Virus record (IMG/VR): IMGVR_UViG_3300049893_001527
Location: 1 to 61,641 of that record
Direction: 5' to 3' (one strand)
DNA: 61,641 nt
From: a virus
Taxonomy: Duplodnaviria; Caudoviricetes
A program made the position numbers and the translations under genes. Positions 13,418 to 39,224 of the stretch are shown piece by piece. Position 1 is the stretch's first letter, and every line of letters begins with the position of its first letter. Below the pieces are notes generated by a model, which had not been told where the DNA came from, searched no databases, and worked only from the letters and a program-made list of their open reading frames with translations.

Positions 13418-15298
13418 ATGGCTAAAACATTACAAGACCAAATAGACGAGGGCTTCAAGCCTAAGCCAGTTAATGTCAAATTTAGCTGGTTAGATCATAA
13501 TGATTTAGCTAAGGCAGAAGAAAAGCATGAGTCCCTAGAAAAGTCGGTGCTGAATTCTTTGGATTCCCTTAAAAGAGGGGAAAAGATACACCGTATAGCG
13601 GTAATGGAAGACCCTAGTAATAGGAATTTCCAAACCTTATGGAAGCCAAAGCGTAATTTATTACCGGACGATGTTTTAAAAAAAATATCGGTACAGGACT
13701 CATTGGTTTCAGCTATTTGGATGGCTAGGGCCAACCATTTAACGGTATTTGGTAGAGAATTACAAGACCGTTTTAGTTTAGGTTATATATTAATGCCTCG
13801 TAAGGGGGTTATGGAAAAGGCTACGGATTCTCAAAAGGAAGAATTGCGTAGTAGAATTAAAAATGCGACTAAGTTGTTGGGGACTTGTGGGTTTACCGAA
13901 GGTTGGTCTAGGGGAGAACAAGAATCCCTACCGGTTTATTTATATAAACAAGCCAAAAATGCATTAATCAATGGTCGATTTGCTACAGAAATCATATATA
14001 CCCGTAAAATGGATGGAACTAGGGTATTTCATGCTTTTAGGTCAGTTGATGCAGGTACAATATATAAAACGGTTCCTAAACTAGAAGCAATAGACCGTAT
14101 TAGACAACAAGCATTGAGTCATTTGCAATCCATCAAGAATGAAAAGTTACAGCCAGAACGTTTCCAAAATGATGAATATGCCTACGTTGAAGTAATAGAA
14201 AACCAACCTAGACAAGCGTTTACGGAAGACGAAATGGTCGTTTGGGATATGTATCCAGTTACGGACTACGAACTTAACGGCTACCCTATTACACCAATTG
14301 ATACAGTAATAAATGATGTAGTAACACACATTAATATAACTACTTATAATAAGTTATATTTCCAAAATGGTCGTGCCGCTAGGGGTATGATTGTAATCAA
14401 GTCTACAGACATATCACCTGATTTGATTACTCAGATCCGTAATCACATGACGGCTAGCATTAATAATGTAAATAACTCTTTCCGAGTACCTGTATTTGGT
14501 GTAGACGTAGAGGATGAAATTAGTTGGCAACCATTTGAGGGCCAAGGTGCCCGGGACATGGAATTCGAGTATTTGTATGATAATAATGCTAGGGCAATAT
14601 TGTCGGCTTTCCAAATTTCCCCTGACGAATTACCGGGTTACAGCCATTTGTCTAAAGGAACCAATAACCAAGCTTTATCAGAATCAAGCAACGAATACAA
14701 AATGGAAGCGGCCCGGGACGTAGGTATTAGACCGCTTTTGCTAAAGTTCCAAGATTTCTTTAATGAAGTAATTATACCTTTAATTGACCCAGTTTTGGCT
14801 CAATTGTGTGTATTGAAGTTTGCTGGCTTGGATGCGGATACAGCCGAAAAGGAATCAACTAGGCTAGCTCAAGACCAACAACTACACATGGATTACGATG
14901 AAATCCGCCTACACGTTGAAAAGGAGCCAGTAGGACAAGAATGGGGTGGTAGGTTCCCACTAAATGCAGCTTATCAAGCTGTTTTGGATAAATATTGGAC
15001 TGTAGGACAAATAAAAGAACACTTCTTTGGTCAAGTGGGGGCCAGCAAAGACCCTAAGTGGGATTATGTAAGAGATCCATTCTGGTTCCAATACCAACAA
15101 CTATTACAAGCTAAAGAGCAAATGGCCCAACAGCAACAACAACAACAAATGCAACAGCAACAAATGCAACAGCCACCCGAAGGTGAGGGGGACCAACCAC
15201 CCGAAGGTGAGGGCGAAGGCCAACCACCCGAGGGTGAATCAGAAATAGCCCAAAAAGCAGACCAAGTGGCACAATTATTAGGTGGAAACAATGGCTAA
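13418..15298 (+). CDS. Portal protein
   Basis: Position; YPITPID, YFQNG.AARG, RDMEF, AF.ISP.E, G.RPLL...QD.FN motifs of phage portals; polyQ/PPEGEG tail. Confidence 0.88.
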   Translation: MAKTLQDQIDEGFKPKPVNVKFSWLDHNDLAKAEEKHESLEKSVLNSLDSLKRGEKIHRIAVMEDPSNRNFQTLWKPKRNLLPDDVLKKISVQDSLVSAIWMARANHLTVFGRELQDRFSLGYILMPRKGVMEKATDSQKEELRSRIKNATKLLGTCGFTEGWSRGEQESLPVYLYKQAKNALINGRFATEIIYTRKMDGTRVFHAFRSVDAGTIYKTVPKLEAIDRIRQQALSHLQSIKNEKLQPERFQNDEYAYVEVIENQPRQAFTEDEMVVWDMYPVTDYELNGYPITPIDTVINDVVTHINITTYNKLYFQNGRAARGMIVIKSTDISPDLITQIRNHMTASINNVNNSFRVPVFGVDVEDEISWQPFEGQGARDMEFEYLYDNNARAILSAFQISPDELPGYSHLSKGTNNQALSESSNEYKMEAARDVGIRPLLLKFQDFFNEVIIPLIDPVLAQLCVLKFAGLDADTAEKESTRLAQDQQLHMDYDEIRLHVEKEPVGQEWGGRFPLNAAYQAVLDKYWTVGQIKEHFFGQVGASKDPKWDYVRDPFWFQYQQLLQAKEQMAQQQQQQQMQQQQMQQPPEGEGDQPPEGEGEGQPPEGESEIAQKADQVAQLLGGNNG

Positions 15299-17471
15299 AG
15301 CAATGGTAATAGACGGTATTGCGGCATCTGAGGCTATAGATAGCTCTGGTGAAATATTGTCTGTTGCCGGATTAGATATTTCTGATTTGGAAGCTGGGCT
15401 AGGAGTATTAAATTACGAACACCGTTCCGAAAAGGATGGTGGTGCATCTAGCAATGATATTATTGGGGCTATTACATACGCCAAGAAAATATTTAAACCA
15501 GAAGATTGTGAAAATCCCCGTCAAAGGATGTATTGGGATAAAATTGAATTACCGTTCGTTTATATTACGGCAGAACTATTTAATGGGGAAGATCATACCG
15601 GGGCCAAAGCCGCCGCTAGTTTAATTAGGTATTACCACCGTAGACACCTACCAATATTAATGCGTTTTAGTATTGAGGGTTCTACAATAGAACGCGAAGG
15701 TAATTTCTTAAAAAGAAGTGTAGCCCGTAGAGTAGCGGCTACCCTAAAGCCTTGTAATAGAAGCTGCATTTCGGGTGTTTTGGAAGATGCAGATGACGTT
15801 AGTTCTTTAGATGAATTGGTTAGGGGGGATTTGCCAACTACCCAAATCAAAAAGTCGGTAGTATATGAATTTGATGCCTTGGTAAAGGATGAAGCCGAAC
15901 TATTGGCCGATAAGTTGGAAAACTTCAAGGAAATCAAATACTTAAACGAGCTACTAATGAAATACAATGTAGCTCCAACACAACTTAATGGTTATAGTGC
16001 ATTACAAACAGAATGGGTTGACGGGAAATCCAAGAAAAAGAAAAAGTTAATAGATACCTATAAGAAATGGGCCCGTAAGGAACCCCTAGAAAAATTCATA
16101 AACCAAGAACACCCGGACGTACCGGCGGACTTGGTTAAATATTTCCTAGATGGGATAGAATCCTACCATAATGGACAAACCGAGTTATTGTATGCCGCGT
16201 TGCATCAATTGAAGCCAAAGTCTGTTTTGATTAAGAACCTAGGGGATTTGTTGGCAAAATTTAACCAATTAGTTAAAACAGTTGGCCCAACTGAAACCAC
16301 CCCTAAAATCCAAACAGACAAACACGGATTACAGGAATTGTCTAAACCAGACGCAGCGGTCCCCGGTAAAATCAAAGTCCATACTGGCCCCTACGCTGGG
16401 AGTGTGCTACACTACCACGGGCCAGACGACCGGGACGGTCATGTTTGTAGTAAAGACCCTGACTCTCATAAGTTTATAATAGACGAAGACCATAAAGTAG
16501 AAATATTAGAACATCCAATTAAACCAGTATTAAGGCATCAAGTACACGGTATAGAACACGCGGTATTCGATAATAATACACCCGAACAAACTAATTTAAT
16601 ACACGGGTTAATATTGAATCCAGACCATCGAGAATACCAACAAGACCGTAGTTTTAGTTCTGGTGGCCTTATCTTTGATCGTTTGGGACAAATGGTTGAC
16701 CCCGGCAAAAGTATTAATGGCAAGCATATTAATCCGTTGACCGGTAAGGCTGTATTTATTAAATCTGATTGGATATCTGATTGGACAGATCCTATTATGG
16801 ATGATTTAAATAGGGTTGCAGCAACTTTGCCAATACCTAAAGCTGAACAAATACACCATGACGCAGCGCATCATTTTTGGGGTACTGGTGCATTGTATCC
16901 AACCTTAACCGCTTTTAAACATCCAGATCATAATTATGTTTCAAAACACTTTGCTGCTTCCGAATTTGTGCCCGGTGAAGAATTGTTTTCCGCAGAACGC
17001 ACACCAGAATTCCAAAATTGGAGATGGAAACCCGAAAACGATGAACTATTAAAGCGTCATATGGTATCTGAAATGATAATGGGGAACACAGATCGTCATG
17101 CCGGTAACATGATTTGGGACAAGGACAGTCAAAAGCTGCATATGATTGATAACGGCTTTATGAATGAACACGCATTATCAACACCGTATTTCTTGCAATT
17201 ATCGGAAATGGACCATGGTTTGCCACAATCAATTAGACAATGGTTACACCAATTAGATTTTAGCAAATTAGATAAATTATTACAAGACCGCCAACTACCA
17301 GACCATTTAAGACGCCAAGTAATGCACCATGCATTGAACGTACAATCCAAGGCAATGCAACCAGTACCTTTGTTATGGCGGGACTTGGTAAATCCAAGAT
17401 TTGACCCCGGTGTGGCGCAGCCAACCAAAGAATCAACCCCTGACGATAGACCATTTAAAAGAAGAAGATAA
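15291..17471 (+). CDS. Prohead protease fused to a C-terminal PI3K/PI4K/HipA-like kinase domain
   Basis: N-terminal D..GE, NYEH (His), FSIEGS (Ser), T.KPCN; C-terminal VFIK...GNTDRHAGN...IDNG. Confidence 0.8.
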   Translation: MAKAMVIDGIAASEAIDSSGEILSVAGLDISDLEAGLGVLNYEHRSEKDGGASSNDIIGAITYAKKIFKPEDCENPRQRMYWDKIELPFVYITAELFNGEDHTGAKAAASLIRYYHRRHLPILMRFSIEGSTIEREGNFLKRSVARRVAATLKPCNRSCISGVLEDADDVSSLDELVRGDLPTTQIKKSVVYEFDALVKDEAELLADKLENFKEIKYLNELLMKYNVAPTQLNGYSALQTEWVDGKSKKKKKLIDTYKKWARKEPLEKFINQEHPDVPADLVKYFLDGIESYHNGQTELLYAALHQLKPKSVLIKNLGDLLAKFNQLVKTVGPTETTPKIQTDKHGLQELSKPDAAVPGKIKVHTGPYAGSVLHYHGPDDRDGHVCSKDPDSHKFIIDEDHKVEILEHPIKPVLRHQVHGIEHAVFDNNTPEQTNLIHGLILNPDHREYQQDRSFSSGGLIFDRLGQMVDPGKSINGKHINPLTGKAVFIKSDWISDWTDPIMDDLNRVAATLPIPKAEQIHHDAAHHFWGTGALYPTLTAFKHPDHNYVSKHFAASEFVPGEELFSAERTPEFQNWRWKPENDELLKRHMVSEMIMGNTDRHAGNMIWDKDSQKLHMIDNGFMNEHALSTPYFLQLSEMDHGLPQSIRQWLHQLDFSKLDKLLQDRQLPDHLRRQVMHHALNVQSKAMQPVPLLWRDLVNPRFDPGVAQPTKESTPDDRPFKRRR

Positions 17472-19292: not shown

Positions 19293-19325
19293 TCTTAGTG
19301 GCAGTAGATTACACGGGGTTTGGGT

Positions 19326-21776
19326 ATGTCAAAATTCGACCAAGATGTTGCCGCGCTTATCAAAGAAGCGCGGCAACAAATAAGTGAATTAATTAAGTCT
19401 AGCCAAGAAGAATTGGCTAAAGCTACTATTGGTGAAGTGCTTGAGGCTAAGGCTAAGGGCGAATCATCACCAGAATCATCACCAGAATCATCACCAGACG
19501 TACCCAAATCAGTTAGTTCAAAACCTGTTGGTGTATTAGTTAAAAAGCCGGGGCAACCAAAGCCTGTATTAGATAGGGCGGTTACCCCTGCTAGTCCATT
19601 TATTGCTGGTCGTGATGTTCCAGCGACAGCAGAAAAATTCCCGCAAGTAGTTTCTAAGCCAGAATTTATTGCACAACCTACAAGTAAATCCCCAAAGCCT
19701 GAAATAGAAGACAAAAGTGTTCAACATGATCCGCATCAACATTTGTCGGATAAAATGAAGCTTTTGGGAAACATTTTAGAGCAACACCCAACAAATCCAG
19801 ACGTAGCTAAAAGAGTAGCTAGATCGTTTGCGGATTACATGGTTGCACACAAAGATACCGCCAAAACGTCTAACAAAAAAGAAAGCCATATAGGATCTAG
19901 TAAGGATGCTGCTGCTGGTTTACTAGCACAACCAACTCTAACAGCAAAGTATAGAGCCAAACACGATCCAAAGTTTAGAAAAGAATTGTTAGCTCAACCC
20001 GAATACCAAGACGTATTAGACGAAAAGGGTGAATTAAAATCCAAGCCAGACTTAGGCGATTTTGAGCATTGGACCAAAAAGATGCTAGATATTGCATCTG
20101 GCCAACGTGAACCATTAGAAAATGAGCCTTCAAAAGAAGAAGCGTCCGAAAAGCTATTAAGCTTTTTGCAACACGCTCCTTTGGCTGACCAAGTAAAACA
20201 ACGTGTAGCTCGCGGTTATAAAGACGCAAATGTCACAGCCCGCGTAGCTACACCAGAAGAAATAGCCGATCCGGCATTTTATGAACAATTGTTTGGTAAG
20301 CAAAGCAGGCAACAAGCCGAACACCAACCTGACCCATTATTGCCAGACGAGCTTGATAGTGGCCAAACTACAGACACCGGTTATGAGGGTGGAGCAATCA
20401 AGGATAAAGGCGGTAAAGGTGGGACAAAGGCGGGATTTGGTAATTATGGTTCTGCTATCCCAAGTATTGCTAAATTACAGCAATGGGCCGAAACCAGACC
20501 CGAATATGCTTTTTTGCAACGTCAACAAAATCCAGATGGCACCTATGAATCATTGGAAACCCACCATCAACGTTTGGAAAGTGCCAGAAACAAACTAATA
20601 GATGCTCAAAACGCTGCTAGAAAAAAAGCAGATAAATCTTCATTTTTGGCGTCACCAGAAGAAAAAGCTGCACTAGCAGCCCGTAAAGCCGCTGTTGGCC
20701 AAATTGGTCAACCCGGTGGACCACAACCTAAAAAGGTAGAAGTACCGGATAAAATTAAATCAAAAGTAGAACAACAACCAACCGTAGGTTTTGGTGGTAT
20801 GGGTGGTTCTAGTGGGGATACATGGAATGCGGTTCAAGTAGCCCAACAATTACATGATGAAGTACAAGCCCACAAAAAGCAAAATGAATCCGCACGTTTA
20901 TGGCAAACGCCAGAAGGTCAAGCTAAAATATTGGCTAGACACAAATCAGAAATGATGGCTCATAAGGATCTTCAAAAGGATCCGGTCTTAACTAGTGCTT
21001 TAATACACCCATCTTTTATGCAAACCGTTATGGATAGCGGTAGATTTAGGGTAGATCCGGCTACTAAGCAATCTGTACCATATGTGGATAAATTGTTAGA
21101 AATACCATCTTTGAAAAACTATGCACAAAAAATTCAAGGTGATGTTGTCAAACAAGTCTCAGATGAATTAAAGGCTAGTGGTCGTGGGGCAGATCCACAA
21201 GCAGTAAATGAAGGTGTAGCTAAAAAAATGGGCCAAATGTTAGGCCAAAAAATAGTTCAATCTCGTGCCGCAAAAGCACAAAGCTTAATGGCTAAAAAGC
21301 CGGGTGTTAAAATGCGTCCCGGTGTAGGTATTACACCTACCGCATCCCATAGTGGACGTATAGCGGAAACCATTAAACGTATTAGGTCAAAGCCTTTTGG
21401 TACTAGAGCATTTACTGGAACAGGTAATATGCCTGACAATTGGGAAGATAGCCCACCAAAGGGTGTTGGAAGTATAGCTAGATTACCAGATGAAGCAACC
21501 CCGGAATATGTTGATAGAACTGGCCTATTGGGTAATAAGAAAAAAGCGACAGACGTAGCAACAAAATCTAAAATAAGTGGTCCAGAAGCAGACGCTACGG
21601 CACAAAAAATAAAAGCCGATCATGCTGCGAAAGAAGCAGCAAAACTAGCAGCTAATGTAAAACCGGGTAAATTAGAACAAACACCTTGGAAACCCGGGGA
21701 AAAAGAAGCTTGGATACAAACCGGGGATAGATTGGCTAAGATAAAAGCAGAACTTGGAAAAAAGAAGAAGTCCTAA
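19326..21776 (+). CDS. Large low-complexity (K/A/P/Q-rich) putative internal head protein
   Basis: About 816 aa, late motif upstream, N-terminal ELIKSSQEELAKA motif, ESSP x3 repeat. Confidence 0.65.
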   Translation: MSKFDQDVAALIKEARQQISELIKSSQEELAKATIGEVLEAKAKGESSPESSPESSPDVPKSVSSKPVGVLVKKPGQPKPVLDRAVTPASPFIAGRDVPATAEKFPQVVSKPEFIAQPTSKSPKPEIEDKSVQHDPHQHLSDKMKLLGNILEQHPTNPDVAKRVARSFADYMVAHKDTAKTSNKKESHIGSSKDAAAGLLAQPTLTAKYRAKHDPKFRKELLAQPEYQDVLDEKGELKSKPDLGDFEHWTKKMLDIASGQREPLENEPSKEEASEKLLSFLQHAPLADQVKQRVARGYKDANVTARVATPEEIADPAFYEQLFGKQSRQQAEHQPDPLLPDELDSGQTTDTGYEGGAIKDKGGKGGTKAGFGNYGSAIPSIAKLQQWAETRPEYAFLQRQQNPDGTYESLETHHQRLESARNKLIDAQNAARKKADKSSFLASPEEKAALAARKAAVGQIGQPGGPQPKKVEVPDKIKSKVEQQPTVGFGGMGGSSGDTWNAVQVAQQLHDEVQAHKKQNESARLWQTPEGQAKILARHKSEMMAHKDLQKDPVLTSALIHPSFMQTVMDSGRFRVDPATKQSVPYVDKLLEIPSLKNYAQKIQGDVVKQVSDELKASGRGADPQAVNEGVAKKMGQMLGQKIVQSRAAKAQSLMAKKPGVKMRPGVGITPTASHSGRIAETIKRIRSKPFGTRAFTGTGNMPDNWEDSPPKGVGSIARLPDEATPEYVDRTGLLGNKKKATDVATKSKISGPEADATAQKIKADHAAKEAAKLAANVKPGKLEQTPWKPGEKEAWIQTGDRLAKIKAELGKKKKS

Positions 21777-21808
21777 TCTAACACGATATAAAGGATTTGG
21801 AGCATAAA

Positions 21809-22621
21809 ATGGCAAAACTACGTAAAGATGATGAAACCGCAGCAAGCGCACCAGCGCCAGAAGAAACTTCTAGCCCTGCGCCAATGGATACTGATGGTCC
21901 AGATGCTTCTTTGGAAGGATCTGATGAAGTAGAACCATCTACAGCTAGTGATGCCGGGGCAGACCCGTCCGCGTCCGAAGATGCGGCCCTAGGGGACGCG
22001 GGCGAAGGCGTAGCCGGTGACGACACCGCTGCATTAGTTCAAGCTCTAAGTGCATTGCCACCAGAAAAGCTAGAACAATTAGTTAATGCTATAGAACAAG
22101 TAATTATGTCTAAGGGTGGTGAAGCGGGTGGTGAAACCGCACCAGTAGACGGTCAAGGCGATGCGGGCCAAGCTGCTTCACCGCCAGCCGAAGCCGGTGC
22201 AGAACCCGGGCCAGTAGGACAGGATGCAGGCCAATTAGCACCAGAAATGGGTGCCCCACCAGAAATGCCACCAGAAGAACAACTAGCTCAATCCGAAAAG
22301 GTTGTTCCAAGCGAAGCTTTAGTAAAGTCAGAAGCTAAAGTTGCTGAATTAGAAAAAGCTGTTGGTGATCTAATTGGCACTTTGGAATCAGTATTGACAC
22401 AACCAGTACGTAAGGCTGGAAAAGAATTAGCTAAGGCAGAAAAGCCAGCCATGCCAAAGTTCTCTGAATTAAATAAATCAGAACAAACTAAAGCTCTAAC
22501 TGGTTTATCACGCAATCCGTCACTAACCAAATTCGAACGTTCTAAGATCAATGACTTCGTGTTGTCTAAGTCAGTTTCTATCAATGAGATAGAATCAATC
22601 TATGAAAAGTATAACAAATAA
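21809..22621 (+). CDS. Putative capsid scaffolding protein
   Basis: Directly before the major capsid gene; acidic disordered N-half, coiled coil, several LxK[SA]E motifs. Confidence 0.65.
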   Translation: MAKLRKDDETAASAPAPEETSSPAPMDTDGPDASLEGSDEVEPSTASDAGADPSASEDAALGDAGEGVAGDDTAALVQALSALPPEKLEQLVNAIEQVIMSKGGEAGGETAPVDGQGDAGQAASPPAEAGAEPGPVGQDAGQLAPEMGAPPEMPPEEQLAQSEKVVPSEALVKSEAKVAELEKAVGDLIGTLESVLTQPVRKAGKELAKAEKPAMPKFSELNKSEQTKALTGLSRNPSLTKFERSKINDFVLSKSVSINEIESIYEKYNK

Positions 22622-22639: not shown

Positions 22640-24049
22640 ATGTCACAATTAGCGGAAAAACTAGAATCACTAGCAAAGGCTCTTGAAGCCGGTGGTTACA
22701 ATGCTGTACCTACCACCTTGACTCAAGGTTCAGCATTACAAGTAGAAGATTGTTCTCCTGTAATGTATAATGTTACCTTCAACGACAAGCACATTAAGCT
22801 ACAAAAGGCTTTGAATGTCAAGTCAGTCAAGTCAGTATTCATTCAATTCAACCGTCGTCTAAGCTACGGTCAATTCGGTGGTTCAGCCCAAATTGAAGGT
22901 GCAGTAGGGCAAGAACAAACTAGCGATTTCGTCCGTGTAGGCGTACCAATGGCATTCTACTCAGAACTACGTAGAACTACATTGGTATCAAACATGGTAA
23001 AGACCCAATCCGGTGAAAAGCCAGAAGACTTGGAAGCCGAAGCCGCAGCACTAAGAATTGCTGCCGACATTGAATTCGACTTGTTCCGCGGTAAGGCCGA
23101 TTTCAGCAATGCAGGGGTATTCGATGGTAACCCTAATGCTGTACCTCCACTACCAAACATGATGGGGGTAGACCTACAAATCCGTCAATCCGACCTACAA
23201 ACCAATACCCAAGACCTAATGTTTGAATCATTTAGCTCTGGTTTGTCAGTTGTATTAAACGGTGGTGGTGTTTTGACTCAACCTATAATCGAAGACGCCT
23301 CAGTACGTTCTGCGATTAACCACGGTTCAGCCGATACCCTATATATCGACCCACTTGTACTAAGTGCGTACAACAAATTAGCATACGCCAACAAGGAACG
23401 CATTGTATTAGCTGGCAGCCCACAAACCGCTGTAGGCGCAGACGTACAACGTCAATGGGTTTCCGGTGGTACTGTAAAGACCGAAGCTAGCAGATTCCTA
23501 AGCGGAAAGACTCAACCAATCCGCGCACGCGCTATCGGTCCTGCGACCCCGCTTGTTCCAACCTCTGCCCAAAACGCTTCTAGCACTACTTTCGTAGCTG
23601 CTCAAGTATACAACTACTACACTACGCAAGAAAACGAAATCGGTGAAAGCTCTCGCAGCCCAGCCCTAGCAGTAACGATTTTGGTTAACGGAAACAACGT
23701 TGTTCTTTCTGGTGCCTCAATTGCTCCAACCAGCAAAATAATGAACGTTTACCGTTCTGCTGCTGGTGGTACTGCCGCAAGTGCTAAGTTTATCGGTCGT
23801 GTAGCTACTAACGGTTCAGCTACCCCAGCATTTACCGACCTAAACAACAAAGTACCGGGATTCGTAACTGGATTCTTGCTACAAGATGACACAATGGAAA
23901 TCGCTGAATTAGCTCCATACTCAAGAATGAAGATGGCGGTTGCCGATTTGTCAGAACCAGAAGCGCATTTTAGATTCTGCTGCCTAAAGGTTACTGAACC
24001 TCGCAAGAACGTTCTAGTAGACAACCTAAAGGGTGACCAAAGCTTCTAA
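22640..24049 (+). CDS. Major capsid protein (SPO1/Twort-like)
   Basis: 469 aa, strong RBS, N-terminal LAKALEAGGY..P.....ALQVE like Herelleviridae capsids, IA..IE..LF.G, followed by a strong terminator. Confidence 0.88.
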   Translation: MSQLAEKLESLAKALEAGGYNAVPTTLTQGSALQVEDCSPVMYNVTFNDKHIKLQKALNVKSVKSVFIQFNRRLSYGQFGGSAQIEGAVGQEQTSDFVRVGVPMAFYSELRRTTLVSNMVKTQSGEKPEDLEAEAAALRIAADIEFDLFRGKADFSNAGVFDGNPNAVPPLPNMMGVDLQIRQSDLQTNTQDLMFESFSSGLSVVLNGGGVLTQPIIEDASVRSAINHGSADTLYIDPLVLSAYNKLAYANKERIVLAGSPQTAVGADVQRQWVSGGTVKTEASRFLSGKTQPIRARAIGPATPLVPTSAQNASSTTFVAAQVYNYYTTQENEIGESSRSPALAVTILVNGNNVVLSGASIAPTSKIMNVYRSAAGGTAASAKFIGRVATNGSATPAFTDLNNKVPGFVTGFLLQDDTMEIAELAPYSRMKMAVADLSEPEAHFRFCCLKVTEPRKNVLVDNLKGDQSF

Positions 24050-24110: not shown

Positions 24111-24120
24111 ATTTACGTGG

Positions 24121-28189: not shown

Positions 28190-30096
28190 TGGCAGACCAA
28201 TCAGAACCACTAGAAAAAGCTGCGCCGCACATAGCGGCTTTCTTGGCTGCTGCCCAATTATTTACCGCCAAACCACACAAAACGGAACCGGCGGCTCCAA
28301 AAGTTGCAGCTACTAAGCAATCAGCTAAATCTACCCCCAAGCCCCTACCCTATGGGCCACACTTGCCGACTACTAACTCCGAGCGGGTAGCCCAGCCGTT
28401 CCCTGTATCCGCCGAACTGACCCAAGGCTTGCCGTCTGAAATGCATCCTATCATGCATTTGGAGTCCCGTAACGGACAAAACCAAAACCACGCTGTAGTA
28501 AATAATAATAAATGGCAAACAGCGCACGGACACCTAGGTTTTATGCCGTTTACCGCCCACGAACGTTATATGAAAAATCCGTCTATGCGGACAATGTTCC
28601 CGGGTTTGGAATCGGCAGATAAGTTTTATAAAACATTTACTACTAATGTTAATTTTTATAATACTTTAGCATATTTACATTGGGATTATTTAGGGAAGCG
28701 TTTAGGTAATAATTTGTCAAGAATGGCTTATGGTTGGCGTTTGGGCGAGGGGGCAGCTAAGAAAGCCGATGACCAAACAGCGCAATCCCATTCTTATGTA
28801 AAAGGATATCACGCCCATGCCCAAAATATTCAACCTCAACCAACGGTTACCAAACAAGCGCCTATTAAGAAATCTGAACCAATAGATGAATTTGCAGTTA
28901 AGTTTAAACAATGGATTTATAAAAAGCGCAAAAAGCTAAAGAAATCCGCTACTTACGATAATCTTATGGGTGATATTACGGATTTAGACCGTAAGATGGC
29001 CCGTAAGATGATTGGTAATGAAATATTAGATACACCAGAATTCAAGTCTGCTAGGTTTTTGGCTAAGGAATCCACCCCTAAAGCCAATCGCCTACAAGAC
29101 GCTTTGGCCATTTACGAACACAACCACATATTAGCTGCTTTGTATGCTTATGGGCTGCCTACCAACGATGAATTTGTGGCTAAAATTCAATCAATTATGC
29201 AATTGAGGGTAGGAGAACTAACTAAGGCTGCCGCCGAATACCAAGTCAAGCCCTTAAACATAGAATCCCGCGAAATCGCTGAATACCTACAAGAATCCTT
29301 TAATACTGGCCAATTTGAATCAGTACACTTAAAGGGTAAATATAATGAAGGTTCTATGATTGTAGTTAACAATAGAACACACAACAAATGGCTATTAAAG
29401 CCAGATCAACCACACAACTCGCCAGCTTCCGGGGTAGATCAAGAACCCATTGGGCAATCTCGTAGGGAAGTAATTAATTCCAAGGTAGCTGAACTATTAG
29501 GGATAGGGAATTTCGTAGTTAGTTCAGACTTGGTAGATATAAATGGAAAAGAATATGCTGCGATGGAATTCTTCAATTCCGATTATTCTGGTTTACACAC
29601 AAGAATGACCAATGGTGAAGATATAAAGAACATATTAGAGCCATATAGGGCCAGCGGGTTGTTATTTAAGTGGGCCTTTATGGATTATATATTAGGTAAT
29701 ACGGATCGGCACGGCATGAACGTAATGGCTGATTCTTACGGTAACATTAAATTAATAGACCATGGAAGTTCATTAGCTGGGGATGAATTTGACCCAGCCA
29801 ATGACCCTAATTCATTTATACCATATTATTTACGAGCATATTCCGTACACGACAACTTTAGGGATTTGTCACCACATGACCGTTATCACAGGTTCCCTAA
29901 AGGCAATTACCAATTAGAGCATGAATTCGCGCAATTTGTTCAAAGTGTAAGTGTGGAAGCTATTTGGCAAGTCCTACATAATTATGGGGCCAAAACCGAA
30001 GCCGTAACGCATCGCGTCAAAGAATTAAAGTCAATTCCACCAGAACACGTATTGAGTTATCTATTGGAAATATGGGCCGGTATAGTGGACCCGTAA
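28189..30096 (+). CDS. Lytic transglycosylase (SLT)-like domain plus PI3K/HipA-like kinase domain
   Basis: IMHLESR...AHGHLGFMPFTA...YL...AYGWRLGEG...SYV (SLT); WLLKP, RREV, DYILGNTDRHGMN, LIDHG (kinase). Confidence 0.72.
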   Translation: MADQSEPLEKAAPHIAAFLAAAQLFTAKPHKTEPAAPKVAATKQSAKSTPKPLPYGPHLPTTNSERVAQPFPVSAELTQGLPSEMHPIMHLESRNGQNQNHAVVNNNKWQTAHGHLGFMPFTAHERYMKNPSMRTMFPGLESADKFYKTFTTNVNFYNTLAYLHWDYLGKRLGNNLSRMAYGWRLGEGAAKKADDQTAQSHSYVKGYHAHAQNIQPQPTVTKQAPIKKSEPIDEFAVKFKQWIYKKRKKLKKSATYDNLMGDITDLDRKMARKMIGNEILDTPEFKSARFLAKESTPKANRLQDALAIYEHNHILAALYAYGLPTNDEFVAKIQSIMQLRVGELTKAAAEYQVKPLNIESREIAEYLQESFNTGQFESVHLKGKYNEGSMIVVNNRTHNKWLLKPDQPHNSPASGVDQEPIGQSRREVINSKVAELLGIGNFVVSSDLVDINGKEYAAMEFFNSDYSGLHTRMTNGEDIKNILEPYRASGLLFKWAFMDYILGNTDRHGMNVMADSYGNIKLIDHGSSLAGDEFDPANDPNSFIPYYLRAYSVHDNFRDLSPHDRYHRFPKGNYQLEHEFAQFVQSVSVEAIWQVLHNYGAKTEAVTHRVKELKSIPPEHVLSYLLEIWAGIVDP

Positions 30097-30120: not shown

Positions 30121-30435
30121 ATGCACGTTGCATCTAATCAATTAAAATTTCAACCTAAAGCCATAGGCCAAATGGGCCCTAACGTTGTTTTGGAATCAGA
30201 AACCAAGGGGGGTTTGTTTATAGTATCTGCTGCTGGCAAGAATGGCCAACTACAAACATTAGGGGTTGGGCCGCATCGCGCGGTCGCAAGGTATATGGCC
30301 CAAAAGGACCATCCAGCAGTTAAGATAACTGAACTATCAAAGTCAGAAGTGTTGTCTAAGGCAGAAATTGAACAAATGTTGCCTAAAGCCTATGAGCTAT
30401 TGGCCAAAATAAAAGAAATAGAATCAAATGGCTAA
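30121..30435 (+). CDS. Hypothetical late protein
   Basis: Late motif plus TAGGAG RBS; LSKSE/LSKAE motifs. Confidence 0.65.
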   Translation: MHVASNQLKFQPKAIGQMGPNVVLESETKGGLFIVSAAGKNGQLQTLGVGPHRAVARYMAQKDHPAVKITELSKSEVLSKAEIEQMLPKAYELLAKIKEIESNG

Positions 30436-31641: not shown

Positions 31642-31642
31642 T

Positions 31643-32086: not shown

Positions 32087-32103
32087 CCCCTAATCTTACG
32101 CAC

Positions 32104-32889
32104 ATGAACATTTTTGTATGTTGGGCCATGGACAGGTTAGCGGATAATGTTGACACTTATTTGGTAGGTGGCAATATTGACGCATTGCGTCAACAATCTC
32201 AAAACATGGAACGTTTTGGGCTAATGGTTAAGCAATGGGTTCAAGCCCACCATGGCAAAAATATATACCAAATGGGGGCCACCGGGGCATTTGAAATACC
32301 TAGTGACCGGGGCCACGAACTACGTAGTTTACACAACAAGTTTGACGAAATCATGCAATCTAACGGGTCTATGGGGGTAGGGTTGGAGCTACCGCAAGCG
32401 GCCCAAGCCTTGCATTACGCGGTGCGTCAAGGTGGTGGGACTATAGCCATGTTCGATGATTCCATGGTGGATGAACCCGAAACCACTAAGGAATCCGAAT
32501 TGTTGGGCTTAACTAAAGCACAAGGAGTGGAGGGGGTTAGAAATGAGGGCAGGGCTGCACCAACCCCTCCCCAACGTGGAAAACAAGAACCAGCCCCTAT
32601 GCCTTCTCCTGATGCTGGTCCAGCTAGTTTAGATCCAAGTGCTCCACCGGCAGAACAACCTGCGGGCCCTTCTGCCGGACCAGAGTCCCCTGAAATCGAA
32701 CCTAATCAACCAGAAGAATCTCCTAGAGAACAAGTAATGGCGGCATTAAAAGAAATAAAAGAAGCTGCGCCAATATTAGAACAAATAAAACAACAATCGC
32801 CAGAAACATATAAAGCGATAATGGATATAGTAGATGCCATGATAACTATGGCAGAGAAAATGTCTGGTGGCGAAAATGTCCCTGCTTAA
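32104..32889 (+). CDS. Degenerate mCpol (minimal CRISPR polymerase)-like domain plus Pro-rich linker and helical tail
   Basis: FVCWAMDRLAD resembles YxxxDGDxIG; WV...HGK.IYQMGATG resembles GG.vIf.GGD; SMGVG...QA.QAL.YA..QG resembles SiGiG....A..AL..AK..G; catalytic Asp residues missing. Confidence 0.55.
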   Translation: MNIFVCWAMDRLADNVDTYLVGGNIDALRQQSQNMERFGLMVKQWVQAHHGKNIYQMGATGAFEIPSDRGHELRSLHNKFDEIMQSNGSMGVGLELPQAAQALHYAVRQGGGTIAMFDDSMVDEPETTKESELLGLTKAQGVEGVRNEGRAAPTPPQRGKQEPAPMPSPDAGPASLDPSAPPAEQPAGPSAGPESPEIEPNQPEESPREQVMAALKEIKEAAPILEQIKQQSPETYKAIMDIVDAMITMAEKMSGGENVPA

Positions 32890-35800
32890 GCGTGTACGAG
32901 AATTAAGTAATTTATTAAAAACCGAAAAGGCAACCGAATACCCGGGTAATCCGGGGTCTACGGGGCACCGTTGGTTAACTAATGGTTTGCCTAAAAACGC
33001 CAATGGTCACCATGCTAATCCGGTGGCGACTAGTGCTAAAGGTGCAGTAGGTACTAATATACACAATAAATTGGGTAATATTAGACGTTTTTTGTCACCT
33101 AATGGTGAGCTTGTAACTACCACTAAGCAATCTGGCGTATTGGGGCCTAACGGCAATATAATAAAGCAACCCAAATTAATCAAAGCCGAAGGTGATCCGG
33201 TAGATGAAGGACAACCACAACCACAACAACAAGGAAAACCAAAAAGAAAGCCCGGCACGGGCGCGCTTTTACCAGTTAGTGATAAGTTGCGTAGAAACGT
33301 TAAAGCTTGGATGCGTAAGAATGGGTTATATATTGATTTAACGCCAGACCAAATCAGGGCAATTCAAAGGGCTGGTGGGGCTCCTATAGTAGCTCAAATG
33401 GCCAACGATCCAACTAAACACAAACAAACGGGCACTAGGCATTGGTGGACCGTTGTTGCGCCCAAAGATAAGATAGAGCAAGTTAGAGAAACATTGAAAC
33501 AATTAAGTCCTACTGTTTCTACGAATTATAGGGGCATAGAGGTTAATCCCGATTTTCCTGTTTTAATTGATGGTGCCGCAGTAGCAACAGACAAAAAAAA
33601 CACAGCAACATATGGTAATTACGTTTTGGGTCCAGACGGGACACCTATAGTTTCGGGTTCACCAGAACAAAGAGTATTTGACAATAATGGCAATTTAAAT
33701 AGACACTCTACGCATTTCAATTGGGATGATTTGGATTATTATTGGAAAAATGGTCGCACTCCTTTAACGCCAGAAGTAATTAAAGAAGGTAAAGTACCTA
33801 ATTTGCCAAAAAGTAAAACAATAGAAGAATCCGATACTTTAGGACCAGAAAACCGTAAAGCTTTAAAGGAGTTTTATATAAATTTACGGGATAAAATACC
33901 AGAACAGGGGCATGAACAGGTAATAGACCAAGTTAATGCCGGGGAAGCCTTAGAGGATGTATTAGAAGGTCATGCTAAACATTTAATTGGTCAACTTGAT
34001 CCAGACTGGCACGCAACCAAGTTATTAGCAAGAGATATAGCGCATGAGCTTCATACTAGAACTCAAAAAGTTTTAGGTTGGGACAAAAAGCCCGAAATCC
34101 CTAAAACCGAAGAACATATTAAAGAGATGTTTCCTTTACGCAAGGAACCTATTACAGAGGAACATTTAAGGGATTTGGATACTATTCCGGGTGGAGTAAA
34201 TAATTACTTTTTGGCTTATGCTAATTCCAAAGGATATAATCCAGAAACGGCTGATTCAGAAAAGCTTGTTCCAGTAAGTCCTTTAACTATTAAAACTAGC
34301 CATAAAGATCCGTCTAAGTTAACTGAATTGGATGCTACGCACTCGGTTGAAAAGTACCAAGGTGATGACAAACATAACCTAAAGGTGCGTAGATTTGACC
34401 ATAGTGATTTATTGTCTCCCGATTTGCGCCAAAAGTTTTATTTGTTTGTGGATGACGTTAAAATAGATGAAAGGGGTGGGAAAGAGCGTTTAAAGAGAGT
34501 TTTCCCACAACGATTAGACGAATTGCCATTGCGTTCTGGCAAAAAATGGTCTAATATATTGGAAAGTAAAGCCCAACCTAATCAAAGGGCTGCCGCCAAG
34601 GTGTTTGTGCGTTTAATACCTAAAGATCCAAATAATCCATATTTACCATTTGAGAAACCATATTGGGCATGGGGGGTAGATGACGACACCCACGTTCCGG
34701 GTGGTGGAGCTATTAATGCCGTAGCTAATTTATCTACGATTAGCCATCCGGGTTGGACGGGGTTTAGTAATCACCAATCCCCATCATTTGACCAACAACA
34801 ATCCCAAGTAGATCGTATTACTAGACGATTATCGGCTGGTCATGGGATAATACATCCTTATGGGCAAGCCTATACTGATAGACATTACGCTAAGGCTGGT
34901 GCAGACGAGGCTGTAAAGCATTATGGTGGACACGGTTATTCCGGTACAATAGATATGCCGGGTCGTTCAGTTAATCCAATTGACATAAAGTTGGATCCTA
35001 GTCTAAAGGACCAACCAGCCATGGCCAATGGGTTTGATTTTGAAAAAGCAATGATGATTGCTTTGTTGCGGCACTCTAAGCACCAATTACGTATTACGAA
35101 ATTATCACCCGGCGCGCATAGGGATTCGCACTTTAAATTATATAGGGACTTGGCAGAACATTTTTCAATGCCTGCTTCTGGTGGCCAACGTGGTACATTA
35201 ATAACAGAAAAACCAAAAGAGCCAGAATACGTACCATATACCGAAGAACATCACCAACAAGCAATGGCAGAACACGAAGCCGTTAGGCCAGACATTTCTT
35301 TGGAAGATACTGAATACGCACTAAATCAAGCACGTTCAGAAAACTGGGATCCAGAAGATATAAAAAACTTAGAAGAAACACATAAGCAAGTATTGGCACA
35401 CCATGAACAAGGTCTTGAGCTAGAAAAACGTTGGAAAGAATCACAAAAGAATGGTGGTAAAATATTATTACAAGGTGGCAGTCCGCAACCTAGCCCCGAT
35501 ATGTCTCCCGAAGAATTAGAATATATTAGTAGTTTGCCAATGCATTTCCCGGGTACAATATATTTGACTAAAGGAATAGAACACGAAGGCGTTAAATCAA
35601 ATAATTTGTTTGGGTCAGTACAGGAATCGACTGGCGTTAGTAGAGGTAAGTCGCCTACAAAGAAAGATACTGGTGGTTCTGTAGAATCTCGAATGTCCAT
35701 TTTGGATCCTTTGGTGGCCGATGAATTGGGAAGATTGGAAACCAATAATACTGGTGAATCAAATGATGCCTATAGAATTAGACAAGGTAATATAAGAGAA

Positions 35801-36070
35801 CAAACAAAATACGCTGAAAAATTACAAAGTTCGGTAGTGGAAATCCAAAAACAACCTAAACCTGCGCCGGTTACTGCCAAACCAGTAGAACGTAAACCGG
35901 GGGAATCTACGATTCCAAAACCAACAATTACGCCTGCACCTCCAACAAACAATAATGGTAATGGTGGTGGAGCGGTGGATCCAAAGAATCCAACCAAAAA
36001 GTCAGAAATCTGGTTTAGATTAGATTCAGCGATAGAGAAACTAGAAAAATCTAGGGGTAAACTTGGGTAA
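32867..36070 (+). CDS. Large (1067 aa) putative internal head / cargo protein
   Basis: Long ORF; LIKAE, LTKG, LEKS motifs bracket a central globular region; low-complexity ends. Confidence 0.7.
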   Translation: MAKMSLLKRVRELSNLLKTEKATEYPGNPGSTGHRWLTNGLPKNANGHHANPVATSAKGAVGTNIHNKLGNIRRFLSPNGELVTTTKQSGVLGPNGNIIKQPKLIKAEGDPVDEGQPQPQQQGKPKRKPGTGALLPVSDKLRRNVKAWMRKNGLYIDLTPDQIRAIQRAGGAPIVAQMANDPTKHKQTGTRHWWTVVAPKDKIEQVRETLKQLSPTVSTNYRGIEVNPDFPVLIDGAAVATDKKNTATYGNYVLGPDGTPIVSGSPEQRVFDNNGNLNRHSTHFNWDDLDYYWKNGRTPLTPEVIKEGKVPNLPKSKTIEESDTLGPENRKALKEFYINLRDKIPEQGHEQVIDQVNAGEALEDVLEGHAKHLIGQLDPDWHATKLLARDIAHELHTRTQKVLGWDKKPEIPKTEEHIKEMFPLRKEPITEEHLRDLDTIPGGVNNYFLAYANSKGYNPETADSEKLVPVSPLTIKTSHKDPSKLTELDATHSVEKYQGDDKHNLKVRRFDHSDLLSPDLRQKFYLFVDDVKIDERGGKERLKRVFPQRLDELPLRSGKKWSNILESKAQPNQRAAAKVFVRLIPKDPNNPYLPFEKPYWAWGVDDDTHVPGGGAINAVANLSTISHPGWTGFSNHQSPSFDQQQSQVDRITRRLSAGHGIIHPYGQAYTDRHYAKAGADEAVKHYGGHGYSGTIDMPGRSVNPIDIKLDPSLKDQPAMANGFDFEKAMMIALLRHSKHQLRITKLSPGAHRDSHFKLYRDLAEHFSMPASGGQRGTLITEKPKEPEYVPYTEEHHQQAMAEHEAVRPDISLEDTEYALNQARSENWDPEDIKNLEETHKQVLAHHEQGLELEKRWKESQKNGGKILLQGGSPQPSPDMSPEELEYISSLPMHFPGTIYLTKGIEHEGVKSNNLFGSVQESTGVSRGKSPTKKDTGGSVESRMSILDPLVADELGRLETNNTGESNDAYRIRQGNIREQTKYAEKLQSSVVEIQKQPKPAPVTAKPVERKPGESTIPKPTITPAPPTNNNGNGGGAVDPKNPTKKSEIWFRLDSAIEKLEKSRGKLG

Positions 36071-36610: not shown

Positions 36611-36636
36611 TGACTAAAACCCCTAATCTTTCTAAC

Positions 36637-37626: not shown

Positions 37627-37637
37627 AGGTAATCTAA

Positions 37638-39224
37638 ATGGCTATGGATACTAAAGATAAAATTAATCAATTTGAACAACGTTTGGCTTCTTTAGCGAAG
37701 GGTTTGGGCGGGGGTTTACCGTCAGACCAAGAAATCCATGATATAACAGAAGAAAAGGGTAGGGCACAATCCCTACAAACTAAACAGGGTGAATCAATGT
37801 CAGGACAAGATGAATTTGGGGCAGTATTTCAAGCTTTAATGTCGTTGAAGAAATCCGAAGATTTTATATTAAATAAACAAGAAGATTTAATAGATTTAAA
37901 GAATTCAAATGATCCAGACAAACGCTTTAAGTCCGTAGGTGGCAAAGGCGCAGTAGTACCAGAAGACAAAAAGGCCAAAGTAATACCTGCACCGGGTTCT
38001 GGTGGTAAGAAATCAAAGGGTCGTCCCGGCAAAAGAGTTAAGCCCAACACTAAGGCTGTATCTACCAAGGTTACTAGAGTAACTGTTACTATAGCCAAGA
38101 ATGAAGATTGTATGGATTGTCATGGAACTGGCACTATACCAACCGCTTGCCCTAGTTGTGTTACTGAACCCATAGACAATACTTACGAGGAAGTTACTAA
38201 ACCTATAGGTGATGCACCAGACAACACTTATGGGGAAGGTTTTGACCAATTGACTCAGGGTTCCGAAGCGGCCCCTGCGCCAGAAGTAATGGATTCGTTA
38301 ACTGATGGCGTAGATGAATCTGATGCCAGAGAAACAATGGCAGAACTGAAACTATCTGAATTTACTGGTGTTTTTGAGGCTTTGGCTAAGGGTGGAGCTA
38401 AGTGGTCCCAAAGGGATATGATTAGAACAGGTGGTGTCCCAAAAGCTGCTATGACGGCTACTGGTTCTGATGTTCCTGCTCCTAAAACGGATCCGGGTTT
38501 GGGAACAAGAACAATAGATTTGGGTGACCAACCAACTGAAAGCGTAGCTTTAGCTCAACCACAACCAAAGTCTACATTACCTACTACTCCTAAAGCTGGT
38601 GGTAGTGTAGTTAGAACAACTGGCAAAATTGGCCCAACTAAAATAGATTTTACTGGTGGCGGACAACCTTTACAAGTACAAGAAAACGTTGGTGGCCGAG
38701 GAAATAAAGCGCCTACTACCCCACCCATTCCAACACCCGCGGGTAAAACGCACCAAAAGGGCGTTCCGGGTTCTCAAGCGGCAGTAGGAACAAAACCGGG
38801 ATTTGTTGGTCAAATGGTTAATAAAGTAAAGGGAGTATTAGGCAAAAGCAATGGTAAGCCAGTACCAGAACCAGCGGCTAAGTTAGATGCCCATACCGAA
38901 CAATTTAAAGCCCAAAACGATGAATTAGAGTCCAAGCAAAGGGCTAAACAAGCTATAGCAGAACACCGGAAAAAAATATTAGGTAAGTCATTGGGGCCAG
39001 TACCGGTTAAGACACAAGAACATCATTTAGATAATGGTCAACCATTACAAAAAACCCCCAATTCCGACCCATTTGCGGCAATATGGGCTTGTTTAAATAA
39101 TAATAATTTAGATAAGAATTGTGGTGCTGCGCCAATGTCGGCCCCTAATCCGGCGATAGCCAAGTCAGAAATACCTAATTTATTAAGACAATTAGCAGAA
39201 TTAGCCAAAAAAGAAGGCTTGTAA
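37638..39224 (+). CDS. Low-complexity late protein with many LxK motifs and a CxxCxGxG...CxxC Zn finger
   Basis: LAKG, LKKSE, IAKNE, LAKGG, LGKS x2, IAKSE; CMDCHGTG...CPSC; start may be ATG 37644. Confidence 0.65.
   Translation: MAMDTKDKINQFEQRLASLAKGLGGGLPSDQEIHDITEEKGRAQSLQTKQGESMSGQDEFGAVFQALMSLKKSEDFILNKQEDLIDLKNSNDPDKRFKSVGGKGAVVPEDKKAKVIPAPGSGGKKSKGRPGKRVKPNTKAVSTKVTRVTVTIAKNEDCMDCHGTGTIPTACPSCVTEPIDNTYEEVTKPIGDAPDNTYGEGFDQLTQGSEAAPAPEVMDSLTDGVDESDARETMAELKLSEFTGVFEALAKGGAKWSQRDMIRTGGVPKAAMTATGSDVPAPKTDPGLGTRTIDLGDQPTESVALAQPQPKSTLPTTPKAGGSVVRTTGKIGPTKIDFTGGGQPLQVQENVGGRGNKAPTTPPIPTPAGKTHQKGVPGSQAAVGTKPGFVGQMVNKVKGVLGKSNGKPVPEPAAKLDAHTEQFKAQNDELESKQRAKQAIAEHRKKILGKSLGPVPVKTQEHHLDNGQPLQKTPNSDPFAAIWACLNNNNLDKNCGAAPMSAPNPAIAKSEIPNLLRQLAELAKKEGL

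Follow-up and report, generated by a model that had tools for sequence, protein, structure and literature searches.

Are the enzyme-bearing late proteins of an uncultured tailed phage carried in its capsid and cut into modules by the protease that matures the head? The question is raised by a stretch of DNA of 61,641 nucleotides (IMG/VR record IMGVR_UViG_3300049893_001527, Caudoviricetes; hereafter the window), in which a short motif, [LI]xK[SAG], stands near the N-terminus of the major capsid protein and recurs in late proteins encoded between positions 13,418 and 39,224. An earlier examination of the sequence (the original prediction) had taken these proteins to be polyproteins that are packaged in the prohead, cut after the lysine of the motif, and ejected with the DNA, and had called them a candidate new system. 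Our analysis upholds this in part: the motif behaves like a head-protease site and recurs, conserved, at the junctions of enzyme-bearing proteins, whereas the claim of a new system was overstated.

Judged from its sequence, the window is part of the genome of an uncultured myovirus of about 150-175 kb that is a member of the Myxococcus phage Mx1 family and distant kin of the SPO1-like phages. Mx1 is the closest named phage: its genes lie in the same order, and its capsid protein is 67% identical to that of the window. The SPO1-like Bacillus phages come next, with capsid proteins 23-25% identical. About 160 related loci were found in public contigs, and where the contigs are long they point to genomes of about 150-175 kb. 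Nearly all open reading frames (ORFs) of the window from position 5142 on lie on the + strand, among them a virion gene block with a portal-terminase packaging system, which includes the large terminase (TerL, 10505, profile search), the portal gene, the capsid gene and the sheath gene (39265). The portal protein (626 amino acids [aa], 13418..15298, + strand) was identified by Pfam Phage_portal (E 3.6e-10) and PHROG portal families. The major capsid protein (469 aa, 22640..24049, + strand) was identified by PHROG 752 (E 6.8e-38) and its Mx1 counterpart, and it also matches SPO1 Gp6.1 (PDB 9vel) and the major capsid protein of phi812.

The N-terminus of the capsid protein reads MSQLAEKLESLAK↓ALEAG, where the arrow marks the presumed cut and the residues around it are numbered outward as P3 to P1 before it and P1' and P2' after it. 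This candidate propeptide site, L11-A-K13↓A14 (22670..22681, + strand), is conserved in relatives: among 105 distinct N-termini, P3 is leucine and P1 is lysine in all 105, and P1' is alanine in 98, threonine in 6 and glycine in 1. The site aligns with LNK-ALEAG of SPO1 Gp6.1 (PDB 9vel) and SP-10, and with VVK-SFQTGY of phi812. The phi812 protein is present in the PDB as a 463-aa chain (5lii_P) and as a 439-aa chain (9row_B). Alignment offsets place the start of 9row_B at S25, right after K24, and K24 aligns with K13 of the window. From these chain boundaries we infer that S25 is the mature N-terminus of the phi812 protein. An apparent avoidance of the motif inside the capsid body (21 vs 82 expected) was dropped as uninterpretable, because one decoy was equally depleted and the family members are not independent.

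The scaffold gene showed the same motif at much higher density. The scaffold protein of the window (274 aa, 21797..22621, + strand) has five sites, against 0.69 in shuffled sequences (p<0.001). We took as scaffold candidates the genes ending just upstream of the capsid gene, which were found in 115 of 122 loci with distinct capsid proteins and encode a median of 277 aa. These contained 597 loose motifs ([LI]xK[SAG]), compared with 101 expected from composition, while reversed, shifted, arginine and acidic-P1' decoys occurred at 0.86-1.19 times expectation and L-x-E-[SAG] was depleted (21 vs 121 expected, 0.17x). P2' was glutamic acid at 400 and aspartic acid at 67 of 595 scaffold sites. On the basis of these sites from 115 loci we refined the motif to L-x-K↓S/A-E/D, and counted it as the strict motif, L-x-K-[SA]-[ED]; it occurred 440 times in the scaffold family, 26-fold above the 16.7 expected. 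The portal protein has two candidate N-terminal sites, LAK32↓A and LEK42↓S, and the Mx1 portal likewise has two sites 10 aa apart. A loose site lies within the first 70 aa of 18 of 23 portal homologues, against 1-14 of 23 for four decoys. Taken with the linker site of the protease gene described below, the capsid propeptide, the scaffold and the portal N-terminus suggest that the motif most likely acts as the site of the head protease.

The candidate protease is the N-terminal domain (aa 1-172; 15282..15797, + strand) of a 729-aa fusion protein, ORF 15282-17471, and was assigned by homology and fold to the assemblin-fold (HK97/SPO1-type) prohead serine proteases. It is 50.5% identical to the 'putative prohead protease' of Mx1 and 29% identical to a 'prohead serine protease' of SPO1-like phages. 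BLASTP aligned it with the procapsid protease of SP-10 (E 3e-10), the two sharing LNY[ED]H and FSIEG, which we take to be the catalytic His and Ser motifs. Its match to PHROG 1028 is weak (E 6.6e-4), and the profile search gave no Pfam match. AlphaFold2 (AF2) modeled the domain with confidence scores (pLDDT) of 77-98, and Foldseek matched the model to the assemblins of Epstein-Barr virus (probability 0.99), human cytomegalovirus (0.98) and pseudorabies virus (0.90), with E-values of only 0.015-0.026 and template-modeling (TM) scores by target of 0.33-0.38. Behind the domain lies a 35-residue low-confidence linker (175-209, pLDDT<50), which contains the site I189-K-K191↓S192 (15846..15857, + strand). 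In an alignment of 19 protease fusions the K191 column is lysine in 16 and arginine in 3, with leucine, isoleucine or valine at P3 in 18 and glutamic acid at P2' in 11. The protease ORFs of 23 relatives are 300-1639 aa long, and one or more loose sites fall within residues 150-330 of every one of them.

What follows the linker differs among relatives. In the window it is a PI3/PI4-kinase-like domain at the C-terminus (16569..17396, + strand), recognized by Pfam PI3_PI4_kinase (26.4 bits on the whole protein, below the cut-off of 27.1, and 27.3 on the segment), by Foldseek (PI4K type II, E 3e-5) and by the catalytic loop GNTDRHxxN followed by IDNG. When 18 relatives' protease ORFs were scanned with Pfam, 8 had a C-terminal PI3_PI4_kinase, 2 a GGDEF domain, 1 a weak GNAT match and 7 no match. 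The two GGDEF-ended ORFs are L127:2669-7585 (1639 aa, E 5e-14) and L060:4471-8097 (1209 aa, E 9e-13). Mx1 has a separate 'nucleotide cyclase' gene after the protease gene, and ORF 17911 of the window is weakly related to it.

We then asked whether the motif is enriched across the late region as a whole. Every pentapeptide listed in the original prediction is present in the ORF to which it was assigned, and there are five further matches: LSKGT in the portal, IPKAE in the protease fusion, LSKSV in the scaffold, LPKAY in ORF 30121 and LPKSK in ORF 32867. Controls were shuffles of whole proteins, shuffles within 20-residue blocks, and seven decoy motifs similar to it in composition. We counted 36 loose motifs in the 25 ORFs of 13418-39224, compared with 17.8±4.2 in whole-protein shuffles (z 4.4) and 18.2±4.2 in block shuffles (z 4.2), and the seven decoys were not enriched (z -0.5 to 1.6). 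For protein classes set in advance, each with 1000 local shuffles, the portal, scaffold and capsid proteins together have 10 loose motifs vs 2.7. The 13 accessory late proteins have 25 loose motifs vs 12.1 and 7 strict motifs vs 1.1, and none of the 1000 shuffles reached either number. Neck proteins and nucleotide enzymes have 1 loose motif (3.2 expected), the left arm 11 (6.9 expected), and the tail proteins 7 (5.5 expected) with no strict motif, so that the impression of a motif sparse in sheath, tube and spikes was right. The count of 36 against about 18, and the like enrichment of the accessory, scaffold and kinase-family sets, came out in favor of the original prediction.

The clearest of the accessory proteins is the product of ORF 28189 (28189..30096, + strand), a 635-aa polyprotein with a disordered N-terminus, an SLT-like module, a helical bundle and a PI3/4-kinase-like domain (AF2 mean pLDDT 73.8). 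An exhaustive HMMER search found 730 representative clusters of homologues at E<=1e-3, 341 of them at E<=1e-30; it superseded a word-index search that had returned the self match alone. Among 50,697 phage records the kinase was found in Mx1 only. The conserved part of the family corresponds to query residues ~260-635 and lies at the C-terminus of proteins of 345-2406 residues. The best 149 representatives contain 163 strict motifs vs 26.7 expected. The excess is confined to the part N-terminal to the kinase core, with 148 vs 18.3 (8.1-fold) before the core and 10 vs 8.0 within it; decoys gave 0.5-1.6 times expectation. The sites cluster at query positions 200-350, and a loose site occurs in the first 40 aa of only 19 of the 149.

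At two of the sites in this region the Lys column is nearly invariant. In an 80-sequence alignment the column of K252, in the site L250-K-K252↓S253 (28936..28947, + strand), is lysine in 71 of 80, with serine or alanine at P1' in 53 and glutamic or aspartic acid at P2' in 60. The column of K346, in the site L344-T-K346↓A347 (29218..29229, + strand) in the loop before the kinase N-lobe, is lysine in 79 of 80, with L, F, V, M or I at P3 in 75 and serine or alanine at P1' in 56. The AF2 model has pLDDT<50 in segments 1-6, 21-119, 173-230, 250-256 and 341-346, of which 250-256 and 341-346 are loops of six to seven residues centered on the two sites. The model is folded in helices 118-182, in a helical bundle (265-337) and in the kinase-like domain (353-635). 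A third site, I226-K-K228↓S229 (28864..28875, + strand), falls in segment 173-230. A fourth, L8-E-K10↓A11 (28210..28221, + strand), is where a helix modeled with low confidence begins (block pLDDT 46-54) and may end a short N-terminal propeptide; the Mx1 homologue has PLQK↓A at 33.

The kinase call of the original prediction was supported for the C-terminal domain (aa 353-635; 29245..30093, + strand). Pfam PI3_PI4_kinase (PF00454) scored 27.6-28.9 bits, above the cut-off of 27.1, in a match limited to ~45-50 residues around the catalytic loop. K404, E427, D506, H508, N511 and D524 are invariant in the 80 sequences; by their pattern we take them to be the catalytic Lys, the Glu, the DRHxxN loop (D506, H508 and N511) and the metal-binding Asp. 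Foldseek matched the domain to VPS34, PI4KIIalpha and H. pylori CtkA (E 2e-5 to 5e-4, TM by target <=0.51), and the model has helices at 546-630 after the catalytic loop. This domain and the kinase-like domain fused to the protease have only the catalytic loop in common (38% over 37 aa), so that they are not recent duplicates. Among 26 long proteins of the kinase family, 15 have a NUDIX domain (at the start), 5 GNAT, 3 PBECR5 and 1 ART-PolyVal. Six NUDIX-first polyproteins (P0005, P0007, P0012, P0015, P0017 and P0027) begin M-(A)-K/R-L-G/R-K-S, with a motif-like L-x-K↓S at residues 3-6 right before the NUDIX fold, which may be a very short leader or chance.

The SLT-like module (aa 72-215; 28402..28833, + strand) links the polyproteins to the protease fusions. 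It is common to the 1479-residue 'NUDIX hydrolase' polyprotein of Mx1 (E 4e-24) and the protease fusion of locus L023 (E 5e-19), and occurs in three other ORFs (overall E 4e-24 to 2e-8). Modules thus move between protease passengers and separate polyproteins, and this sharing is the best indirect argument that both kinds of protein end up in the same compartment, the prohead. As to its identity, an SLT-like fold is a lead. In an alignment of six sequences the Glu of LES is invariant and a G-x-x-P-x-x-A / W-x-x-G pattern is seen, and the ESM Atlas gave residues 56-215 a feature score of 0.95 to SLT clusters (20 of 30 matches, TM 0.63-0.69). These points agree with the transglycosylase named in the original prediction, whereas sequence searches for SLT (PF01464) found no match in Pfam at E<=1 or E<=5, in the PDB at E<=10, or in PHROG at E<=0.1. 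Part of the region is of low confidence in the AF2 model (pLDDT<50 over residues 21-119).

The remaining accessory proteins vary in how strongly they carry the motif. ORF 30121 (104 aa, 30121..30435, + strand) has three sites vs 0.46 (p 0.009), including LSK74↓S and LSK80↓A, and [LM]-x-K-S-[ED] stands at residues 71-78 in 8 of 9 homologues; it is one of several small families with a conserved single site. ORF 37638 (37638..39224, + strand) encodes a protein of 528 aa, rich in Lys, Gly and Pro, with six sites vs 1.4 (p 0.001) and a CxxC stretch like a zinc ribbon (DnaJ_CXXCXGXG matched weakly, E 0.009). In the Mx1 homologue such sites stand at 13 (LRK↓S) and 44 (LKK↓S). The N-terminal RLASLAK21↓GLGGG of ORF 37638 (37638-37720) resembles the capsid propeptide, KLESLAK↓ALEAGG (22640-22690), and the Mx1 counterparts of the two proteins both have LRK at the corresponding site. 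ORF 19320 (19320..21776, + strand), just upstream of the scaffold gene, encodes an 818-aa low-complexity protein with N-terminal sites LIK↓S (K26) and LAK↓A (K34). ORF 32867 (1067 aa, 32867..36070, + strand) has four loose sites, including PNLPK315↓S. In distant relatives found via the sheath gene, a K-P-N-L-P-K↓S-E cassette is repeated in proteins encoded just upstream of the sheath; we counted 11 copies of P-x-L-P-K-[SA]-[ED], in 7 of the 3820 distinct ORFs of related loci, and none of the reversed pattern.

ORF 32104 (32104..32889, + strand) encodes a 261-aa protein with a degenerate mCpol/GGDEF-like N-domain, then LTK138↓A, and then a Pro/Glu-rich tail. The Pfam mCpol match is weak (22.6-24.7 bits, below the cut-off of 26.4). 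At the GGDEx position four relatives (L144, L111, L175 and L003) retain GGDEG or SGDEG, in contrast to ATGAF in the window and AVGVL in Mx1. The domain of the window is probably inactive because the GGDEx motif is lost, and this loss is all that speaks for the cyclase-like decoy of the original prediction. A strict site follows the domain at the same place in 1 of 6 homologues. Several mCpol-like relatives have Cys-rich CPYC repeats added after the domain.

A count over neighboring genes, which left out the scaffold and capsid families, showed how the strict motif is distributed around the capsid gene. It occurred 57 times vs 14.1 (4.1x) within 5 kb upstream, 21 vs 8.4 farther than 5 kb upstream, 32 vs 21.2 at 0-5 kb downstream and 32 vs 12.9 (2.5x) at 5-10 kb downstream. 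Five decoys in the same genes gave 0.44-1.9 times expectation.

Because the motif is most likely the cutting site of the head protease, the enzymes that carry it probably enter the capsid and are cut apart inside it. On balance we favor, with moderate confidence, the reading that the prohead protease cuts the Lys motif in capsid, scaffold, portal and accessory enzyme proteins, and that the accessory proteins are cargo, packaged, cut into modules and ejected with the DNA. In this mechanism an assemblin-fold protease, the first ~172 residues of ORF 15282, would cut after the lysine of L/I-x-K↓S/A(G,T), with glutamic or aspartic acid preferred at P2'. It would remove the 13-residue capsid propeptide, cut the scaffold at about five sites and the portal at its N-terminus, and cut its own chain in the linker that follows the protease domain. 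The same site would be used in flexible junctions of accessory late proteins, most clearly in ORF 28189, and also in the kinase-like passenger of the protease, ORF 30121 and the low-complexity ORF 37638. These proteins, which may be this family's version of the T4 internal proteins and of 'polyvalent proteins', would enter the prohead, one of them by direct fusion to the protease, be split into modules as the head matures, and probably exit along with the DNA.

Several observations weigh against this reading. Chance would account for about half of the loose motifs in the accessory proteins. In the remaining 37 ORFs of the window we counted 29 loose motifs vs 19.7 or 21.4 (z 2.1 or 1.7), a mild excess indicating that part of the loose-motif signal is background. 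ORF 19320 (2 vs 2.6) and ORF 32867 (4 vs 2.4) are not individually enriched; neither has a homologue in 176 loci (BLASTP, phmmer) or a Pfam or PHROG match, and low-complexity proteins of this kind may be assembly factors, not cargo. ORFs 28189-37638 are placed among neck genes, not head genes. Family counts are raised by relatedness, a bias that the decoys carry too, and the 149 kinase representatives are mutually <=50% identical; a strict site is present in 106 of them and absent from 43. Positional conservation was at first scored in MAFFT alignments with a window of +/-3 columns. By that criterion few homologues shared the sites of the window (portal, 5-6 of 31; protease, 4 of 23), and as counts in variable N-terminal regions were low, we replaced it by the region and column counts given above. 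The placement of the motif at domain boundaries stood for K191, K252 and K346, which are conserved columns, and did not for several listed sites, among them K228, whose column is unconserved. K191, K228, K252 and K346 all lie in segments of pLDDT<50, and this location in predicted flexible linkers is a second result in favor of the original prediction. In the protease fusion K332 is unconserved and IPK520, a site missing from the original list, lies within a folded helix of the AF2 model. Finally, the capsid cut site derives from PDB chain boundaries, and we found no literature text stating it; a search of the accessible literature turned up no statement of where SPO1/Twort-type proteases cut, and the Mx1 genome paper contains no proteomic or biochemical data.

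These points bring up other explanations. The accessory proteins may be prohead core or scaffold-like assembly factors that are degraded and expelled before or during DNA packaging, as T4 core proteins are, and never delivered. We consider this unlikely, although some points speak for it: the scaffold gene directly follows ORF 19320, whose N-terminus is like those of relatives' scaffolds, ORFs 19320, 32867 and 37638 are of low complexity with no recognizable enzyme domains, and motif density is highest in scaffolds. Other points speak against it. The kinase-like domains retain all catalytic residues in 80 sequences, the sites flank folded domains and do not riddle them, and an SLT-like module would be of use only at cell entry. 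The NUDIX, GNAT, ART and nuclease modules of the homologues are, moreover, typical of delivered effectors as described in the available text on polyvalent proteins (PMC5512222).

Improbable, in our judgment, is the explanation that capsid, scaffold and portal are the only real substrates and that the accessory motifs reflect helix or linker composition and shared ancestry and stay uncut. The loose motif is indeed common (~0.27 per 100 aa outside the region), several sites are unconserved, and counts over homologous families are not independent. Yet reversed and shifted decoys of identical composition showed no enrichment, even in 20-residue-block shuffles, an 8.1-fold excess of the strict motif among 149 representatives <=50% identical is confined to the part before the kinase core, and two nearly invariant Lys columns lie in short low-confidence loops. 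That L-x-K-S/A-E is a docking motif for the protease, the scaffold or the capsid interior, targeting accessory proteins to the prohead without cutting, is very improbable: the sequence evidence here does not separate binding from cutting, and in the capsid-targeting sequences of T4 the two signals coincide, but the homologous capsid site is the start of a deposited mature chain, and multiple sites per scaffold suit degradation better than docking.

Within the favored reading of packaged and processed cargo, a bolder version is possible but doubtful. The protease might both load and license the pre-packed enzymes, which would enter as its passengers or on the helical-bundle-plus-kinase polyproteins, and K346 might be a zymogen-type switch. 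The PI4K-like kinase, and the SLT, NUDIX, GNAT, ART or nuclease modules of relatives, would then become active only after capsid maturation and be injected ready for DNA entry.

The late genes are interspersed with others of less direct bearing. Neck proteins are encoded at 27347, 30428 and 36604, the last matching PF23932, and the tail tube at 43829; these and the sheath were assigned by profile searches. Between the capsid gene and the neck genes lie genes for ThyX (Pfam Thy1, E 2.2e-48) and a deoxynucleoside monophosphate kinase (24091-25550). Mx1 has the same placement, an odd one for nucleotide metabolism within a structural operon, and the two proteins have no motif sites. A 95-aa membrane-like DUF5658 protein (E 6e-17, 36063-36350) is flanked by neck genes, and in the same slot Mx1 has a similar hydrophobic 99-aa ORF (L001 31248-31547). 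Between sheath and tube, at 42208-43794, a 528-aa protein with weak Kelch and DUF6242 matches contains two near-identical internal repeats of ~100 residues (VAKA.L.D..TLTISDG...VQVNVS.DVTAEDVEARLITAIN). Directly 3' of the tube gene, 22 tRNA genes and a tmRNA gene occupy 44489-53986; the tmRNA gene lies at 53651-53986, with the tag peptide DADMALAAA, and Mx1 has a tRNA block at the equivalent place. ORF 44587-45249 has a YspA/SLOG-like match (PF10686, PHROG 289), and its real start is probably downstream of 44848, since the listed start overlaps tRNA-Trp and tRNA-Gln. Tailspike-like proteins are encoded at 54087-56012 and 57686-59995 (PHROG tail spike/depolymerase matches, E down to 1.4e-11).

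How does this family compare with known systems? The prohead system of phage T4 comprises the gp21 protease, which cuts after Glu, capsid-targeting sequences and the internal proteins IPI-III. The family resembles T4 in having one head-protease motif on capsid, scaffold and putative non-structural cargo, and its cargo, like that of T4, would act in the next host. The short N-terminal leaders removed in T4 may have counterparts here, for which K10 of ORF 28189, K21 of ORF 37638 and K26/K34 of ORF 19320 are candidate sites. It differs in having Lys at P1 where T4 has Glu, in its large multidomain chains with internal junction sites, and in a passenger fused to the protease. With the Herelleviridae (SPO1, phi812, SP-10) it shares a homologous capsid protein and protease, with L/V-x-K↓A/S at the same alignment position. 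SP-10, a phage annotated with a 'major capsid protein precursor', also has L-x-K-S sites in the scaffold, the portal N-terminus and the protease. Unlike that of the window, its protease is 247 aa long without a passenger, and from holin to tail genes SP-10 (L005) has no kinase or NUDIX polyprotein annotated.

Virion-delivered enzymes and processed head proteins are not new in themselves. The ADP-ribosyltransferase Alt of T4 is packaged and injected (PMC5512222). PhiKZ-like phages, such as SPN3US with its gp245 protease, depend on a prohead protease that processes many of their head proteins, and they package and eject protein in bulk, according to the sections available to us (PMC10052503, PMC7411985, PMC5694885). 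Those phages differ in lineage, capsid size and cut motif, and the window gives no evidence of an inner body. In phage P1 the large anti-restriction proteins Dar/DdrB are processed, packaged in the head and delivered to protect incoming DNA (PMC5512222). We liken the two by description, and in the text at hand the processing in phage P1 is ascribed to the protein's own metallopeptidase domain and not to a prohead protease. As processed head cargo, with one prohead-protease motif on capsid, scaffold and packaged proteins (T4, phiKZ-like phages), and virion-delivered polyvalent proteins (PMC5512222) were already known, the term 'new system' claimed too much. Three features had no description in the Mx1 paper, the accessible parts of the polyvalent-protein paper and the literature searched: the Lys-type L-x-K↓S/A-E/D as a family-wide junction mark, an N-terminal protease with kinase or GGDEF passengers, and conserved sites flanking a PI3/4-kinase-like module.

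The nearest parallel is with the polyvalent proteins of Iyer et al. (2017, PMC5512222), of which, by the excerpts at our disposal, ~35% are phage-encoded and likely capsid-packaged, and some have assemblin-like peptidases at their C-termini that probably process the proteins during assembly. Both groups have multi-enzyme chains near portal and terminase genes, the polyvalent ones being predicted to be packaged and injected. At least two unrelated domains per chain are seen in ORF 28189 (SLT-like and kinase-like) and ORF 15282 (protease and kinase-like). The repertoires overlap in NUDIX, GNAT, ART-PolyVal, PBECR nuclease, GGDEF and kinase domains, counting the homologues of ORF 28189 and the protease fusions. 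Polyvalent-protein kinases are a Ser/Thr/Tyr-kinase clade without a C-lobe (PMC5512222), whereas those of the window are PI3/4-kinase-like with a helical C-terminal part, and the same excerpts name no prohead-protease cut motif at junctions. The packaging and injection of polyvalent proteins were predicted in 2017, but their loading and cutting have remained largely untested. In the present family, large and almost wholly uncultured (~160 related loci, 730 kinase-protein clusters), a simple, readable and putative cut motif, L-x-K↓S/A-E/D, ties capsid, scaffold and portal to enzyme-bearing chains. If our reading is true, cut sites legible in the sequence would be an aid in setting the bounds of injected effector modules in phages known from metagenomes, and the idea can be tested in Mx1, which is cultured on Myxococcus xanthus DK1050.

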